DNA of 4,201 nucleotides, from IMG/VR virus record IMGVR_UViG_2648501150_000013, positions 1 to 4,201 of that record. One strand, given 5' to 3'. The DNA comes from a virus. Taxonomy: Duplodnaviria > Heunggongvirae > Uroviricota > Caudoviricetes. A model generated the notes under the pieces. The model was not told where the DNA came from and did no database searches. It saw only the letters and a list, made by a program, of their open reading frames with translations. The translations under genes and the position numbers were made by a program. Of this stretch, positions 1 to 4,201 are shown piece by piece; the first letter of the stretch is position 1, and each line of letters begins with the position of its first letter.

Positions 1-560
1 TGGTTCCCAGCCTCATAGGCTACCCGCAACCAGTGCATGAATGTTTCCGCAGACACACAGCCGCAGTCCACATCGATTTCCCCGCGTTGCTGCTCCAGCC
101 ATTGCTCAAAATCTAACTTGTAAGCCTTACTTTCAGGTTCATCACCATTGAACTCGACTTTCTGCGACGCTATGAGAGCGGCTTCGTACTGTTCGCGAGT
201 GACAACCGATGTAAACGCACTGCGATCAAGGTCACTGATATCGCAAATAATGCCATCAATGGAATAATTCTTTGATGATTGGTAATTTTTATGGTGCGTA
301 CCAAAAAGAACCATAGCGCGACTACTACCTGGCATCGTAATGGATAGATGGCAAAAATCTTTTCCATCAGGCCATCCACGCCCCTTAGATAATTCCTTCA
401 CTAACAAGTCAATCAGTGTCATAGCGTTACCATCCTTGCAAGGCGCTAAAGCTATTTTGGCAAGCTCCAATACTTCATCTGCTGCGTATCCAGCACTGTG
501 ACCATACATTTCGATGCTGGTGATAATCTCTGATATGCGTTTTTTAGTGATTCTTGTCAT
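1..560 (-). CDS. Hypothetical prophage protein, partial (start codon at 560; C-terminus lies beyond the left window edge). Its C-proximal part is paralogous to the central module of the 1649..2161 gene.
   Basis: Manual translation of the minus strand from ATG at 560..558 gives an open frame with no stop to position 1 (MTRITKKRISEIITSIEMYGHSAGYAADEVLELAKIALAP...KLDFEQWLEQQRGEIDVDCGCVSAETFMHWLRVAYEAGN...). The ATG overlaps the TGA of the upstream gene (ATGA). It is missed by the ORF track because it has no stop inside the window. Confidence 0.7.
   Translation of the reverse strand, partial: MTRITKKRISEIITSIEMYGHSAGYAADEVLELAKIALAPCKDGNAMTLIDLLVKELSKGRGWPDGKDFCHLSITMPGSSRAMVLFGTHHKNYQSSKNYSIDGIICDISDLDRSAFTSVVTREQYEAALIASQKVEFNGDEPESKAYKLDFEQWLEQQRGEIDVDCGCVSAETFMHWLRVAYEAGN
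7..124. repeat. Diverged direct repeat, copy 1 (partner at 1878..1995).
   Basis: Ungapped alignment at a constant offset of 1871 nt. I counted about 80% identity over the 95 nt at 30..124. Both copies encode the FEQWLEQQ-x-G-x-IDVDCGCVS module of two different genes. Confidence 0.7.
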
Positions 561-766
561 AGTTTTATTTCCTTGCATGGTTCGCCTTTACGGCAAACAG
601 CTACACGGTCATTTCTTACATTAACCACGGTCACCGTTCCGTCATCGCATTGAATAACGATGAAAGGGTGTTCATTCTCTTTTGTGCAATGTTGCTGTTC
701 CCCTGCTATAACAGTGAGGGGAATTAATAAAATAATAATTACTGCGAATTTACTAAATGTTGCCAT
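557..766 (-). CDS. Small cysteine-containing protein (69 aa) with a predicted N-terminal signal peptide or membrane anchor; function unknown.
   Basis: ORF track. The N-terminus MATFSKFAVIIILLIPLTVIAG has a short charged n-region and a roughly 15-residue hydrophobic core; the remaining ~47 residues contain 4 Cys. The TGA stop overlaps the ATG of the next gene. The upstream SD is weak (AGAAAG). Confidence 0.6.
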   Translation of the reverse strand: MATFSKFAVIIILLIPLTVIAGEQQHCTKENEHPFIVIQCDDGTVTVVNVRNDRVAVCRKGEPCKEIKL

Positions 767-790
767 AGCAATCTTTCTTTCTGTTTTTCA

Positions 791-1084
791 TTATGGTTGA
801 ATCCAGTTATCTTCAATAGCAATGCTCAATCTTTGTAACCATTCTGCTAATTTCAGCATTGCTTCTCTTTCGCTTAAACCACGAGGAAAATCATCAAGCG
901 ATATTGTTGGCTTGAAGTTTCCCAAATTATCCATTTCAACGGTCAGATTTTGCTCCAGCACGGTATTCCTTACGCGGCTATTGTGCCGAAGCAAATATAC
1001 TGAACGTGATTTATTGGTTTTGTGGTCGAGCTGATATTCGGTAAGTATCATCTGGCTTCCGCCATGATTATTACCGCGCCACAT
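791..1084 (-). CDS. Hypothetical protein, 97 aa.
   Basis: ORF track. GGAG lies 5 nt upstream of the ATG at 1084. An alternative internal start at Met12 (MILTEYQ...) cannot be excluded. No family recognised. Confidence 0.6.
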   Translation of the reverse strand: MWRGNNHGGSQMILTEYQLDHKTNKSRSVYLLRHNSRVRNTVLEQNLTVEMDNLGNFKPTISLDDFPRGLSEREAMLKLAEWLQRLSIAIEDNWIQP

Positions 1085-1107
1085 AATTACTCCGTGTTAA
1101 TTGAAAT

Positions 1108-1389
1108 TTAGCTATTAATCTTCACTTTTATCGCGAACACCTTTACCGGTTTATCACCGAAGTGCGGATGTGTGATTGTCTTGATTTCATATCCGTCATA
1201 CGGAACATCAATTCTGCGGCTGGAATCGTCGCGCTTCGGATATCCCTTTGTGATAATCAGGCGGTCATACTTACGGTTAACGAGGCGCTTATTCCAGTAG
1301 TCATTACACAGGCGATACTCTTCCGTTTTATCTCCGCGAATCATGGCATCGAAGTATTCACCTTTGACGGCAAGTTGCAGGTTAGCCAT
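1108..1389 (-). CDS. ASCH-like (PUA-fold) small protein, 93 aa; start trimmed relative to the ORF track.
   Basis: A strong SD (GGAGGTGA) precedes the ATG at 1389..1387, so the start is set at MANLQLAVKGEYFDAMIRGDKTEEYR. The G-x-K-T-x-E-x-R motif near the N-terminus matches the ASCH-domain signature as I recall it (for example E. coli YqfB). The ATG overlaps the upstream TAA (TAATG). Confidence 0.6.
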   Translation of the reverse strand: MANLQLAVKGEYFDAMIRGDKTEEYRLCNDYWNKRLVNRKYDRLIITKGYPKRDDSSRRIDVPYDGYEIKTITHPHFGDKPVKVFAIKVKINS

Positions 1390-1649
1390 TACCTCACCTC
1401 CAGTCTCCATACCGCCTGACCAATCCGGCTGGCATGGGTATCTTTGGATACTGTTCCGTCTTTAGCCAGCTCCATAAGAATTTTGCGCAAATCTGCCGAG
1501 CGCCATTCTTCATCAGGAAATTCCTTCTCCATTGCCAACCGCAGATTCCAGGTTGCTATCGTGAATGGATATTCACCGCCGAGAGCTTTCTCTTGTAGGG
1601 CAGCACGGGAACGCATCACCTGCAAAACCTTCTCTTTTACATCCATCAT
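1389..1649 (-). CDS. Hypothetical protein, 86 aa; start trimmed relative to the ORF track.
   Basis: AAGGAGG lies 4 nt upstream of the ATG at 1649..1647 (MMDVKEKVLQ...). The ATG overlaps the TAA of the upstream DUF551-like gene (TAATG). The 24 codons upstream in the ORF track lie inside the preceding gene. Confidence 0.6.
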   Translation of the reverse strand: MMDVKEKVLQVMRSRAALQEKALGGEYPFTIATWNLRLAMEKEFPDEEWRSADLRKILMELAKDGTVSKDTHASRIGQAVWRLEVR

Positions 1650-2161
1650 TACGCCTCCTTCGGCGGTTCTGGTAGCGGCATCCAGTGTGACGGTTTCCAC
1701 GACGCACCAGGAATTATCCACCCATCATTAGCGTCAGGATGCCCGGGGATGTAAGTAGCCCATTTCATTCGCCAGTCACCTTTCCTGTCAAACTCCACGG
1801 CAACAAGAACGGCTGTTTTGGTATTCGGCATTCGCTCACTACAGCTTATCCAACCATCCGGAATTACCGGAGAGTTGCCAGCCTCATACGCCACACGCAT
1901 CCAGTGCAGAAGCATTTCAGTGCTCACACAGCCGCAATCAACATCAATTTTGCCGTGCTGCTGTTCCAGCCATTGCTCAAAAGTTAACTTGTAAGTTTGG
2001 CTTACAGGTTCTGCACTATCAGCTTCGCGCCGCTTCTGTAGCTCTGCTGCCATCGCTCTCACGACTTCAACTGGTGCCCTTGCAGCAAACTCTATGTTGG
2101 TGATCAGCTCATTAAGATATTGCTCGCCTGGATACTGTTTCTTATCGGTTATAGTGGTCAT
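1649..2161 (-). CDS. DUF551-like phage protein, 170 aa; start trimmed relative to the ORF track.
   Basis: AAGGAGAG lies 4 nt upstream of the ATG at 2161..2159 (MTTITDKKQYPGEQ...). The C-terminus (...GWIIPGASWKPSHWMPLPEPPKEA) resembles the conserved end of DUF551 prophage proteins as recalled; this needs an HMM check. The central module (FEQWLEQQHGKIDVDCGCVS...VAYEAGN) is shared with the partial gene at 1..560. Confidence 0.7.
   Translation of the reverse strand: MTTITDKKQYPGEQYLNELITNIEFAARAPVEVVRAMAAELQKRREADSAEPVSQTYKLTFEQWLEQQHGKIDVDCGCVSTEMLLHWMRVAYEAGNSPVIPDGWISCSERMPNTKTAVLVAVEFDRKGDWRMKWATYIPGHPDANDGWIIPGASWKPSHWMPLPEPPKEA
1878..1995. repeat. Diverged direct repeat, copy 2 (partner at 7..124).
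   Basis: See copy 1; lies inside the DUF551-like gene. Confidence 0.7.
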
Positions 2162-2210
2162 ATCACTCTCCTTTTCCCTGAAGCATAGCGGCACGGCAGG
2201 CATTCCACCC
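2159..2210. repeat. Direct repeat of about 52 nt, copy 1 (partner at 2812..2863), spanning a gene junction.
   Basis: catatcactctcc...gaagcatagcggc(a/g)cggcagg is near-identical in both copies, with compensating 1-nt indels. It covers the start codon of the downstream gene, the SD, the stop, and the last ~15 codons (GWNACRAAMLxGKGE) of paralogs A and B. Confidence 0.75.
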
Positions 2211-2540
2211 CTTCACATAACCGAACGCCATCAACTGATCACTCATGGCGGGCAGCATTGTGTGGGTCGTACTGATTTCTTCCGGCACTACCGGCGCTGG
2301 CGGGGCGATGCGTCCAAGCAACTTATTTACCTCTTTCGCCATCGCGTCATATTTATCTAAATGGCGATTAGCTTCTAAGCAGACTCGGCGCATCTGATCT
2401 GAGTTAACTCGTTTAACTGGATCTGCTTCCAGCGATGCCAGCGCAATCCGTGCCAGTTCCATTTGTTCACCACGGGTAAGCCCGTTTTCAAGCGGATTTT
2501 TAATGAACAATTCAATACGTTCTTTGGTAATAGTGGTCAT
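2163..2540 (-). CDS. Hypothetical phage protein, 125 aa (paralog A; possibly Ead/Ea22-like).
   Basis: ORF track. TAAGGAGT lies 5 nt upstream of the ATG at 2540. It shares three motif patches with the 2816..3229 gene (IALASLEA, PAPVVP, GWNACRAAMLxGKGE at the C-terminus). The Ea22-like label is from memory and is not verified. Confidence 0.7.
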   Translation of the reverse strand: MTTITKERIELFIKNPLENGLTRGEQMELARIALASLEADPVKRVNSDQMRRVCLEANRHLDKYDAMAKEVNKLLGRIAPPAPVVPEEISTTHTMLPAMSDQLMAFGYVKGWNACRAAMLQGKGE

Positions 2541-2550
2541 GTGTTACTCC

Positions 2551-2814
2551 TTAACCCGCAGTGCTTTCAACTGATGAGGGGAACAAAATCTTTTCATCAA
2601 ACCCTGCATTCATATCATGGACAGCAACACACCAATCCATTGACGAACGATTATCAAGAGCCTCCATGATTTCATCCATGCGGCGCAGGTCATACAGGTA
2701 AATGCTTTTATCGCCAATGGTGTAAAAACCAATTTTTTTCGGTGATGGGCAGCGATCAAGAACGTCCTGTAATTCGTTCAACCATGCCCGTTCTTTTTTT
2801 GTTAAAGTTGCCAT
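2551..2814 (-). CDS. Hypothetical protein, 87 aa; start trimmed relative to the ORF track.
   Basis: AAGGAGAG lies 4 nt upstream of the ATG at 2814..2812 (MATLTKKERAWLNELQDVL...). The ORF-track N-terminal extension would run through the C-terminus of the upstream gene. No family recognised. Confidence 0.6.
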   Translation of the reverse strand: MATLTKKERAWLNELQDVLDRCPSPKKIGFYTIGDKSIYLYDLRRMDEIMEALDNRSSMDWCVAVHDMNAGFDEKILFPSSVESTAG

Positions 2815-2863
2815 ATCACTCTCCTTTCCCATGAAGCATAGCGGCGCGGCAGGCGTTCCAGCC
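2812..2863. repeat. Direct repeat of about 52 nt, copy 2 (partner at 2159..2210).
   Basis: See copy 1. Confidence 0.75.
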
Positions 2864-3229
2864 TGTAGCGTATGCAGCCGCTTTGCTGCTGCCTTCAACT
2901 GGCGCATCCTGCCAATACATTTCATCCGGCACTACCGGCGCTGGCAAGGCAGCGTGATAGTAGAGTGGCATAGTTTTGTACAGTGGTTCGCCAGGACTTC
3001 CGTCAACCTGATTCCATTCTTCAACCCAGGCATCAACAACCGCTTTGCTGGTTGATACATGTTCTTCTGAATCTACATTTTGTCCTGATATACAGAACAT
3101 AACTGCCTCTGCTTCCAGCGATGCCAGAGCAATTTCATAAGCACGGCGCTCAATATTGTCTCGAACGTCCAAGCTGCCTATGCGCTCTTTGATTTCTTTA
3201 ATCAGTTCTTTGTCGGTAAAAGTGGTCAT
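2816..3229 (-). CDS. Hypothetical phage protein, 137 aa (paralog B; possibly Ead/Ea22-like); start trimmed relative to the ORF track.
   Basis: AAGGAGA lies 5 nt upstream of the ATG at 3229..3227 (MTTFTDKELIKEI...). The C-terminus ...ATGWNACRAAMLHGKGE and the internal IALASLEAE and PAPVVPDE patches match paralog A. Confidence 0.7.
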   Translation of the reverse strand: MTTFTDKELIKEIKERIGSLDVRDNIERRAYEIALASLEAEAVMFCISGQNVDSEEHVSTSKAVVDAWVEEWNQVDGSPGEPLYKTMPLYYHAALPAPVVPDEMYWQDAPVEGSSKAAAYATGWNACRAAMLHGKGE

Positions 3230-3230
3230 A

Positions 3231-3590
3231 TCAATCTCCTTTGGTACCAATGTTTACAGCCTGGCAAGCCTCTTTGAGCACCCAGTCAACAGCGTCTTTC
3301 CATGCTCCGGTTTCGACTGGCGGATTCTCACGCTTTACCTGTTCATAGAAACGCACTGCTTTAATCAATCCTTCTGGTGTCAGTGGCACAGGCGGGACAG
3401 TGAATAAGGCCTGAATCTCATAGCTCGGCCTGTCGTTGCAATCCTCTTTTGTCGGGACATATTTCCAGTCACCAACCCACTGCTTCCCCTGAAAGTCTGT
3501 AACGCCTTTTTTCACGTAGCGATATCGCCATGCCACTGGTTTTGCCTGCCCTGCCTTTTCATGCCCTTCCTGATAATTAATCTCGCTCAT
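3231..3590 (-). CDS. Hypothetical protein, 119 aa.
   Basis: ORF track. The ATG at 3590..3588 overlaps the TGA of the upstream small ORF (ATGA). The SD is weak. The protein ends ...GTKGD, immediately followed by the conserved junction and the next ATG. Confidence 0.6.
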   Translation of the reverse strand: MSEINYQEGHEKAGQAKPVAWRYRYVKKGVTDFQGKQWVGDWKYVPTKEDCNDRPSYEIQALFTVPPVPLTPEGLIKAVRFYEQVKRENPPVETGAWKDAVDWVLKEACQAVNIGTKGD

Positions 3591-3763
3591 TCATCGCCCC
3601 ACTCATCACAATATGCTTCGACCGGTGTTTTCCCTGCTTCATAATCATCACGCCATGCTTCAGCATCAGCGGCACTTCCACCGCGTAACTCTGCATAATC
3701 CATTAACAGTTCATGCCATTCTTCAAAACTGGCGTTATATTTAGTTGAACCAAAATCAGCCAT
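3587..3763 (-). CDS. Small acidic protein, 58 aa, not in the ORF track (below its length cutoff).
   Basis: Manual translation from ATG 3763..3761 to TGA 3589..3587 gives MADFGSTKYNASFEEWHELLMDYAELRGGSAADAEAWRDDYEAGKTPVEAYCDEWGDE, with 16 D/E against 4 K/R. GAGGAAG lies about 9 nt upstream. It fills the otherwise empty gap between two coupled genes, and its stop overlaps the next ATG. Confidence 0.5.
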   Translation of the reverse strand: MADFGSTKYNASFEEWHELLMDYAELRGGSAADAEAWRDDYEAGKTPVEAYCDEWGDE

Positions 3764-3938
3764 TTTGTTCTTCCTCTTCGTCTTTTATTTCGTGGTATGA
3801 GTAATTGCAGTAGTTAAAGAAAATATCTTTAGCTTCATCCTGTATTTCATCTGGTGTTGCATCATCATCCACTTCGAATTCATCCTCGAAATCTCCACCG
3901 GCTATTCCCGTTTCAATAATTATTTTGAATTTTCGCAT
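3756..3938 (-). CDS. Small highly acidic protein, 60 aa.
   Basis: ORF track. MRKFKIIIETGIAGGDFEDEFEVDDDATPDEIQDEAKDIFFNYCNYSYHEIKDEEEEQNG has 20 D/E against 5 K/R. There is no alternative in-frame start upstream, where an in-frame TAA lies. No canonical SD is close to the ATG, and a hairpin sits just upstream. Confidence 0.5.
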   Translation of the reverse strand: MRKFKIIIETGIAGGDFEDEFEVDDDATPDEIQDEAKDIFFNYCNYSYHEIKDEEEEQNG

Positions 3939-4028
3939 TTCACTACCGCCCTTTCGGACGGCCTCCTGATGTTCTGAGGGTGCAGGAATCCCTCCGGTTA
4001 AGGATTAAATTTTTAACAGAGCTAAATT
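3939..4028 (-). promoter_or_regulatory. Intergenic leader upstream of the acidic gene pair: an AT-rich stretch plus a stem-loop with a GNRA-type loop in the minus-strand transcript.
   Basis: This is the only intergenic gap longer than 25 nt in the window. Minus-strand RNA CCGUCC-GAAA-GGGCGG (plus coordinates 3944..3959) forms a 6-bp stem with one G-U wobble, which on the plus strand would be a C-A mismatch. A second 5-bp stem, GAGGG/CCCTC, lies at 3975..3993. An AT-rich segment spans about 4000..4028. Confidence 0.3.
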
Positions 4029-4201
4029 TAATTATTCAGTTCTGGATTTTGTCGCCCTGCGTATCCGCGCTTTCGCGTTACGCTCAATCTGAATTAGCTT
4101 TTCTATATTTTTTCGCCTTTCCCGCTCCTCCTGACGCAAGAGCCTTACATCATCTGCCAGTCTGGTTTCTCTTTTCGCCACAGAGAGCATCCAGTCAAAT
4201 G
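4029..4201 (-). CDS. Possible small basic protein, partial or about 53 aa, Lys/Arg/Glu-rich and coiled-coil-like.
   Basis: The minus-strand frame is open from the right window edge to TAA at 4031..4029 (...MLSVAKRETRLADDVRLLRQEERERRKNIEKLIQIERNAKARIRRATKSRTE). A candidate ATG sits at 4190..4188, but the true start may lie outside the window. The composition is low-complexity, so this could be chance. Confidence 0.3.

Follow-up and report, generated by a model that had tools for sequence, protein, structure and literature searches.

The window analysed here, a stretch of 4,201 nucleotides (nt) of a Caudoviricetes virus (positions 1 to 4,201 of the IMG/VR record IMGVR_UViG_2648501150_000013), raises a simple question: why should three boundaries between its small genes be built from almost the same short sequence? 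The original prediction, made from the letters of the window, likened this junction to the boundary sequences at which lambdoid phages exchange gene cassettes. On the evidence given below, each of the three junctions is probably a copy of one conserved boundary (linker) sequence that belongs to enterobacterial temperate phages. All credible genes of the window are carried by the minus strand, tightly packed in one operon, and on this strand AAAGGAGA(G/T)TGATATG occurs at exactly three gene boundaries, with the ATG at 2161, 2814 and 3229. With up to two mismatches allowed, AAAGGAGANTGATATG returns these three matches and none elsewhere in the window, compared to 0.02 expected (0 of 200 shuffles reach three), which bears out the near-identical arrangement that had been predicted.

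Copy 1 (2159-2174, minus strand; gene coordinates below are likewise on this strand) has the core AAAGGAGAGTGATATG and runs from the KGE codons and TGA stop of a gene of 125 amino acids (aa) (2163-2540), across a single nucleotide, to the ATG of a 170-aa gene (1649-2161) that belongs to Pfam family DUF551 (E=4.4e-21). Copy 2 (2812-2827, minus strand) has the same core and joins the KGE and TGA of a 137-aa gene (2816-3229), again across one nucleotide, to the ATG of an 87-aa gene (2551-2814; phrog_1714). Copy 3 (3227-3242, minus strand) is the T variant AAAGGAGATTGATATG, and connects the KGD and TGA of a 119-aa gene (3231-3590; phrog_660), one nucleotide apart, with the ATG of the 137-aa gene. 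Each boundary has the same layout: TGA stop; one T; ATG; with AAGGAG 6 nt ahead of the ATG as the Shine-Dalgarno (SD) sequence. The upstream open reading frames (ORFs) end in ...MLQGKGE, ...MLHGKGE and ...IGTKGD, respectively, and the downstream ones start with MTTITDKK, MATLTKKE and MTTFTDKE; the reading frames are as claimed at all three boundaries. The linker spans a junction of 16-30 bases that holds the last codons and the stop of the upstream gene, a strong SD, and the start of the downstream gene. Relatives often extend the 16-mer to GGCATTCGCATCAAAGGAGAGTGATATG, and in most of them the upstream extension is (CGCGCCGCT)GGCATTCGCATC, which encodes KGE, often GIRIKGE.

The repeated block is real and longer than had been supposed, since it belongs to a 74-nt family with members at 2137-2210, 2790-2863 (82%) and 3205-3278 (61%); it reaches up to 74 nt owing to the paralogy of two of the upstream genes. 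A second junction type (TAAGGAGTAACACATGACCACT, 2526-2557, minus strand) lies at the start of the 125-aa gene (2540), where the TAA of the 87-aa gene overlaps the SD. As predicted its likeness to the other three is limited: it shares only the AAGGAG SD and ATGACCACT. This type is kept in 77 loci in front of five downstream families, all of which start with MTT(I/F)T. The MTT or MAT start that had been counted as part of the junction is indeed present at the boundaries in the window. It is not general, as usually only 3-5 nt are kept after the ATG, and the MTT(I/F)T starts reflect paralogous N-terminal modules, not the linker.

Reuse of the linker across gene pairs and phages

A scan of IMG/VR with the 16-mer returned 120 loci; the full set amounts to about 280 loci plus the window (up to two mismatches), and neighbour families were defined as clusters of the 300 nt on either side of each junction. 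Herein 25 upstream and 19 downstream families form one connected network. It comprises 53 combinations, and in 22 four-gamete quartets each of two upstream families is joined to each of two downstream families. Where junctions differ on both sides, identity covers 13-28 nt ahead of the ATG and 3-5 nt behind it (medians 17 and 3 nt). A short conserved sequence, with a core of 16 nt in the window that is extended to 26-31 nt in related loci, is therefore found at gene boundaries whose flanks are non-homologous, and the mosaic joints coincide with it (median identity block 21 nt in total).

The G variant is present in many enterobacterial phage contigs of IMG/VR, between quite different gene pairs. 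At the IMG/VR linker loci the upstream proteins end in ...GIRIKGE, ...LRTKGE, ...AAAGKGE or ...ML(H/Q)GKGE, and the downstream proteins begin with MATLTKKE, MALTHREL, MAIAASY, MSAITKER, MTTITDKK, MDGQIS, MARFIAV, and others. Matches to the T variant (KGD) in IMG/VR mostly are unrelated chance matches in non-enterobacterial contigs, and T-variant loci were counted as members only if linked via the network of shared neighbour gene families. One 237-kb contig (L064, 474-1142) carries three tandem small paralogous genes, each ending in ...KGD and followed by the T-variant 16-mer and MKTS...; the same junction apparently occurs here independently, in a large and unrelated phage contig, and is explained by tandem duplication.

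Local duplication could also be invoked for the window itself: the 3' end of an Ea22-like gene would have been copied within the operon together with the next start, and the repeat as such would be without a role. The 125-aa protein is a paralogue of the 137-aa protein (BLASTP E=4.6e-14), the blocks at 2161 and 2814 share their 82% identity over the full 74 nt, and all three upstream proteins match phrog_660. The 119-aa protein upstream of 3229, claimed to be no paralogue of the other two, consequently is not wholly unrelated to them; it aligns with the 137-aa protein at a BLASTP E of 0.01 and shares the layout PxVP...AC(Q/R)A...KG(D/E). Truly unrelated proteins in other loci, however, do carry the KG(E/D) tail. 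The same 16-31 nt stand between pairs that are unrelated on both sides, across the 25 by 19 families, and these include non-Ea22 proteins such as an XF1762-like protein, the Cys-rich MAIAASY... protein, and one ending in ...NRWKNHLRTKGE. Identity moreover stops abruptly at the limits given above on either side of the ATG. As a complete explanation local paralogy is largely refuted, and we regard it as very unlikely.

The linker had also been said to fix both the C-terminus of one protein and the N-terminus of the next. This stands for the upstream side, where the C-terminus is KGE or GIRIKGE; on the downstream side only the ATG and 0-2 further bases generally are set.

As a sample selected by motif is biased, loci were also fetched by gene, 80 for each of the 87-aa and 119-aa genes. 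Upstream of the 87-aa gene (at least 99% amino-acid identity; 79 loci) there are eight different neighbour families, with the linker in 52 of the 79 loci, 51 of them exact. In the loci selected by the 119-aa gene, 13 downstream families directly follow its ...KG(E/D/G)-TGA, and homologues of the 119-aa protein in other loci end in IGIKGE or IRIKGE with the G variant. The opposite end of this 119-aa gene serves as an internal control. It is joined to the preceding 58-aa gene by an ATGA overlap, without linker, and here a single upstream family is found in 80/80 loci. This control is decisive: only the linker side reassorts. The alignment of junctions in homologous prophage regions, proposed at the outset as a test, gave reuse of the junction and breakpoints in or at the edge of the linker. 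When the window is compared with 159 loci, the three 40-nt linker blocks hold 197 of the 434 BLAST endpoints, compared to 24.8 for a uniform spread; in other words, 45% of the endpoints lie in 5.7% of the sequence.

A presence-absence difference has the same limits. The order in the window is 119-aa gene, linker, 137-aa gene, linker, 87-aa gene; in two loci (L214 and L215) it is 119-aa gene, linker, 87-aa gene, and the 137-aa gene is absent precisely between the linkers. The difference is 415 nt, measured linker to linker, and is bounded by the direct linker copies 3 and 2, so the 137-aa gene behaves as a cassette, by a precise insertion or deletion. A further variant lies 3' of the 87-aa gene in four loci of L122-L201 (TAAggactaacacATGACAACATGGGAAAGGAAAGTGATATGGCGTTA), where an MTT... 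start is fused to the last codons and linker of a ...HGKGE gene; it looks as if a near-complete Ea22-like gene had been deleted, between end points that lie close to the linkers but not exactly within them.

The 35-nt extended linker occurs in 165 phage records. In lambda it is the 3' end of ea22 (J02459.1 29,844-29,874; about 1040-1075 on the minus strand in the coordinates of locus L281), and Ea22 ends in ...SDAGIRIKGE, encoded by GGCATTCGCATCAAAGGAGAGTGA. The TGA of lambda ea22 is followed by non-coding DNA, with no start codon. The bases after it, gatcggttttgtaaaagataacgcttgtga, resemble the sequence after the linker-attached ATG in another locus (L049). The lambda copy looks like an orphan linker left by the loss of a downstream cassette. 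In HK620 the linker is at the hkaG/hkaF junction of the pL operon, between the recombination genes and xis/int; it is also present in P22-like Salmonella phages and in many Shiga toxin (Stx) phages, and in the P1-like phage P7 it stands at the upf88.3/upf89.0 junction. With the element in lambda, HK620, P22-like and Stx phages and with its neighbours reassorting, the predicted likeness to the lambdoid cassette-exchange boundaries is supported.

A scan of genome contigs with the lambda-type linker 24-mer gave 38 matches, mostly lambda DNA contaminating unrelated assemblies, so it is uninformative on host range. The matches L283-L320 are small, often low-coverage or ~48.4-48.5 kb contigs in assemblies of Streptomyces, Pseudomonas, Shewanella, Bacillus, Prevotella, and others, and almost certainly are contamination by lambda control DNA. 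Similarly, Campylobacter phage CJLB-4 (MW057783.1; 48,361 bp, ea22 at ~29.8 kb) looks like lambda.

Translation signal and the KGE tail

At the mRNA level AAGGAG and GUGAU can pair with 11 nt of the 3' tail of 16S rRNA, with one bulged base. For the G variant the duplex energy is -14.4 kcal/mol, the second strongest among the 12 gene starts of the window; for the T variant it is -9.7. The SD lies inside the upstream ORF and the TGA ends 1 nt before the ATG, which is the classic layout for termination-reinitiation and suggests translational coupling. The junctions have no stable RNA structure (folding is no better than for shuffled sequences, with z-scores of +0.1 to +1.3) and no promoter-like or terminator-like site; a promoter, a terminator and a structured RNA were accordingly rejected as candidates for the element.

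These features invite the view that the junction is a translation signal and nothing else: illegitimate joints would arise anywhere, as in the Hendrix model, and selection would keep those at boundaries with an optimal SD, stop and start. The strong SD, the stop close to the start and the open region without stable structure agree with it, as does the variable spacer after the TGA, and many phage mosaics are without boundary sequences (PMC3233612). Other junctions in the same operon, however, use quite different SD contexts, so the 16-mer is not forced by selection, and identity reaches outside the SD, to GGCATTCGCATC and CGCGCCGCT, which selection on the SD does not explain. Neither does this view account for a reassortment that is concentrated at linker junctions and absent at the ATGA overlap of the 119-aa gene, nor for a 137-aa cassette difference bounded by direct linker copies. 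We consider it unlikely that the translation signal is the whole explanation.

The protein end of the junction has been noticed before. The last three residues of all Ea22 proteins are a basic residue and Gly-Glu, a '+GE' motif whose significance was called unknown (Dydecka et al. 2020, PMC7093339). The tripeptide is the same as ours; it was treated there as a protein motif, whereas here it would reflect a nucleic-acid element that proteins unrelated to Ea22 bear as well. If (GIRI)KGE were instead selected in the protein, e.g. as an interaction or degradation tag of Ea22-like proteins, its presence in all Ea22 proteins would be expected. The tail is also part of the construct of the lambda Ea22 C-terminal domain (8DSX), the only solved structure found, and the 8DSX structure paper makes no comment on it. 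Against a peptide function, AAAGGAG is invariant, so that codons are fixed even at synonymous positions (AAA GGA G..), and the last codon may be GAG, GAA, GAT, GAC, GGC or GGG, so that the final residue is E, D or G. Proteins of unrelated sequence bear the tail as well, and the lambda copy precedes no gene start, which fits a DNA relic. A functional peptide tail is hardly credible in our view. With invariant nucleotides, a varying last residue, and the tail on unrelated proteins, the '+GE' ending is best read as the protein-level shadow of the SD, and conservation as acting on the nucleotides, not on the peptide. None of the explanations that compete with a boundary sequence (local paralogy, a translation signal, a peptide tail) do we consider sufficient on its own.

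Proposed exchange at the linker and known cassette systems

The reassortment, the breakpoints, the linker-bounded cassette and the control junction that does not reassort all fit recombination at the linker. In the mechanism that we propose, the linker would act at two levels. On the mRNA it would provide a strong unstructured initiation region, by pairing of AAGGAG and GUGAU with the 16S rRNA 3' tail, so that each small gene of the operon could be translated by coupling or reinitiation whatever its neighbour. On the DNA its 16 to ~40 base pairs (bp) of near-identity would be a patch for short-homology recombination, either between phages and prophages or between two linker copies within one genome. 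Candidate enzymes are the single-strand-annealing recombinases of the phages (Red, RecT, Erf, Sak4-type) or RecA; such a role is plausible, as genes for recombinases of this kind lie beside the region in these phages, and phages and prophages have been documented to undergo relaxed homologous recombination (PMC3945230). The outcome would be that whole ORFs are exchanged, inserted or deleted in frame and ready for expression.

Several observations weigh against a boundary sequence that works by recombination. The 16-bp core alone is below the length usually thought efficient for RecA or Red recombination, and only the extended 28-40 nt versions of the linker are comfortably long enough. In the window, simple paralogy accounts for two of the three upstream halves. 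In 27 of the 79 loci with the 87-aa gene the junction is related but distinct (AAGGAAAACTGATATG). The 53 combinations and the 197 endpoints count loci, many related by descent, and not independent events. In the 119-aa family the TGA and the start are separated by a variable spacer of 0 to 3 nt, which would equally agree with illegitimate joints made directly behind the stop and then selected. Finally, strong breakpoints also fall in two intragenic conserved blocks, e.g. 74 endpoints of high-scoring segment pairs at 2415-2429, so the linker is not the sole exchange point.

The hotspot at 2415-2429 falls in a conserved block of the 125-aa gene, IALASLEA (2414-2447, minus strand), that is 91% identical to 3100-3133 in the paralogue. 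A second intragenic block, PAPVVPEE (2275-2306, minus strand), is 91% identical to 2919-2950 and 63% identical to 3367-3398, and at this block alternative C-terminal domains are swapped in relatives (chimeric family U17). In the U17 chimera an Ea22-like coiled coil is followed by the C-terminal half of the 119-aa protein. In the Ea22-like paralogues the IALASLEA and PAPVVPEE blocks are separated by unrelated sequence.

Among known systems, the boundary or linker model of Susskind and Botstein (1978), Botstein (1980) and, for HK620, Clark et al. (2001), in the form summarised in passages of PMC3233612 and PMC2839356, comes closest. Those summaries describe a short conserved boundary sequence between non-homologous flanking modules, in lambda, P22, HK620 and Stx phages, and propose that it targets homologous recombination so that modules are exchanged in register. 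Judged by its sequence, our element appears to be a bona fide lambdoid boundary sequence of the Botstein/Clark type, known in kind and unusually clean as an instance. It differs in that it overlaps coding sequence and sets the last 3-7 residues of the upstream protein, besides being SD, stop and start; in that it acts on single small accessory genes, in the exo-xis (ea) region and in the hea region of P7; and in that it is common to P1-like phage-plasmids too. Our literature searches found no paper giving the linker sequence or tying the '+GE' tail to an SD-bearing boundary; Clark 2001 may list the HK620 hkaG/hkaF junction.

The PeSL cassettes of T4-type phages, as presented in passages of PMC2839356, likewise are short repeats between small ORFan genes in hyperplastic regions, carry expression signals, and are homology patches through which single genes are inserted, deleted or replaced. 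They are intergenic, ~100 bp long, and have a sigma-70 promoter and a terminator hairpin, whereas the linker lies within one operon, without promoter, terminator or hairpin, and its signals are translational and not transcriptional. As promoter-like and terminator-like sites are absent from the junctions and folding is no better than shuffled, the linker was rejected as a PeSL. By analogy the PeSL would be its closest functional counterpart: the linker probably works like a PeSL but is not one. Integron gene cassettes, too, are arrays of single promoterless ORFs that are bounded by a repeated element (attC) and are gained or lost there. In contrast to attC the linker forms no imperfect palindrome or hairpin, no evidence was found of a dedicated integrase, and exchange presumably is homology-driven; an attC-like site was rejected since the junctions have no stable structure.

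A wider, doubtful but possible, reading makes the linker the repeat unit of an integron-like cassette system that is driven by homology and common to lambdoid, P22-like and P1-like phages, in which the joint is kept since its keepers gain useful accessory genes faster. Every small accessory ORF would then carry the same expression-ready joint and could be moved between phage families by annealing recombinases, and the IALASLEA and PAPVVPEE blocks would be the same principle applied to protein domains.

To a phage genomicist such a linker is not surprising in principle; it does offer an explanation for a published and unexplained '+GE' motif. It also bears on the debate on phage mosaicism, in which targeted homologous exchange at linkers (Botstein, Clark) is set against random illegitimate joining followed by selection (Hendrix): with the 119-aa gene, which has the linker on one side and reassorts only there, it is a compact and countable test case. 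The system is experimentally tractable, with a 415-bp cassette between direct copies and with G and T variants, and the linker can be recoded synonymously, e.g. to AAGGGTGAATAA, and its SD changed from AAAGGAGAG to AAGGGTGAA. The '+GE' or GIRIKGE tail of Ea22 indicates that a nucleic-acid element, and not protein function, can set part of a protein's sequence, which matters for reading the conserved termini of exo-xis proteins in Stx phages. The presence of the linker in lambdoid phages as well as in P1-like phage-plasmids points to gene flow between the two.

Gene content and setting of the window

In transcription order the minus-strand operon begins with a DUF7167 gene (3756-3938; Pfam) and the 58-aa gene (3587-3763), followed by the linker-associated genes described above. 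After the 170-aa gene come an 86-aa gene, an ASCH-domain gene, two small genes, and a second DUF551 gene; the ASCH-domain label is the annotation in a RefSeq relative, and Pfam gave that gene of the window no family. Except for DUF551 and DUF7167, the Pfam search of the proteins flanking the junctions gave nothing, and the PHROGs matches of the window's proteins are to families of unknown function only.

The 137-aa (MTTFTDKE...GWNACRAAMLHGKGE) and 125-aa (MTTITKERI...GWNACRAAMLQGKGE) genes are Ead/Ea22-like: both match phrog_5117, phrog_660 and phrog_60, and both end in KGE. The counterpart of the 137-aa gene in phage vB_EcoS-689R5 is annotated as Ea22 protein, and Ead/Ea22-like genes adjoin the same linker in other phages. 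Pfam has no match for either protein, and a PDB sequence search with the 137-aa protein returned nothing meaningful.

DNA of this kind is typically found in lambdoid prophages, in their accessory exo-xis (ea) region, and in P1-like phage-plasmids, in the region equivalent to it. Pieces of the window match DNA in 501 phage records; among complete E. coli genomes they do so in 4,217 of 5,426. No single record among the phage records and complete E. coli genomes searched holds at least 80% of it, and the window is therefore extremely mosaic. Its best single match is the 96-kb P1-like phage-plasmid pB2C_96 (L322; 54% coverage, 96.9% identity), in which phd/doc, humD and a homologue of DNA polymerase III theta lie near the matching genes. 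In vB_EcoS-689R5 the same genes are situated between replication gene O and rusA/Q, outside the exo-xis region. The two placements differ, so these cassettes occupy different operons in different phages. Within the window itself, a 146-nt direct repeat (3-148 and 1874-2019, 77% identity) joins the two paralogous DUF551 genes, which are 1.87 kb apart in the same operon.

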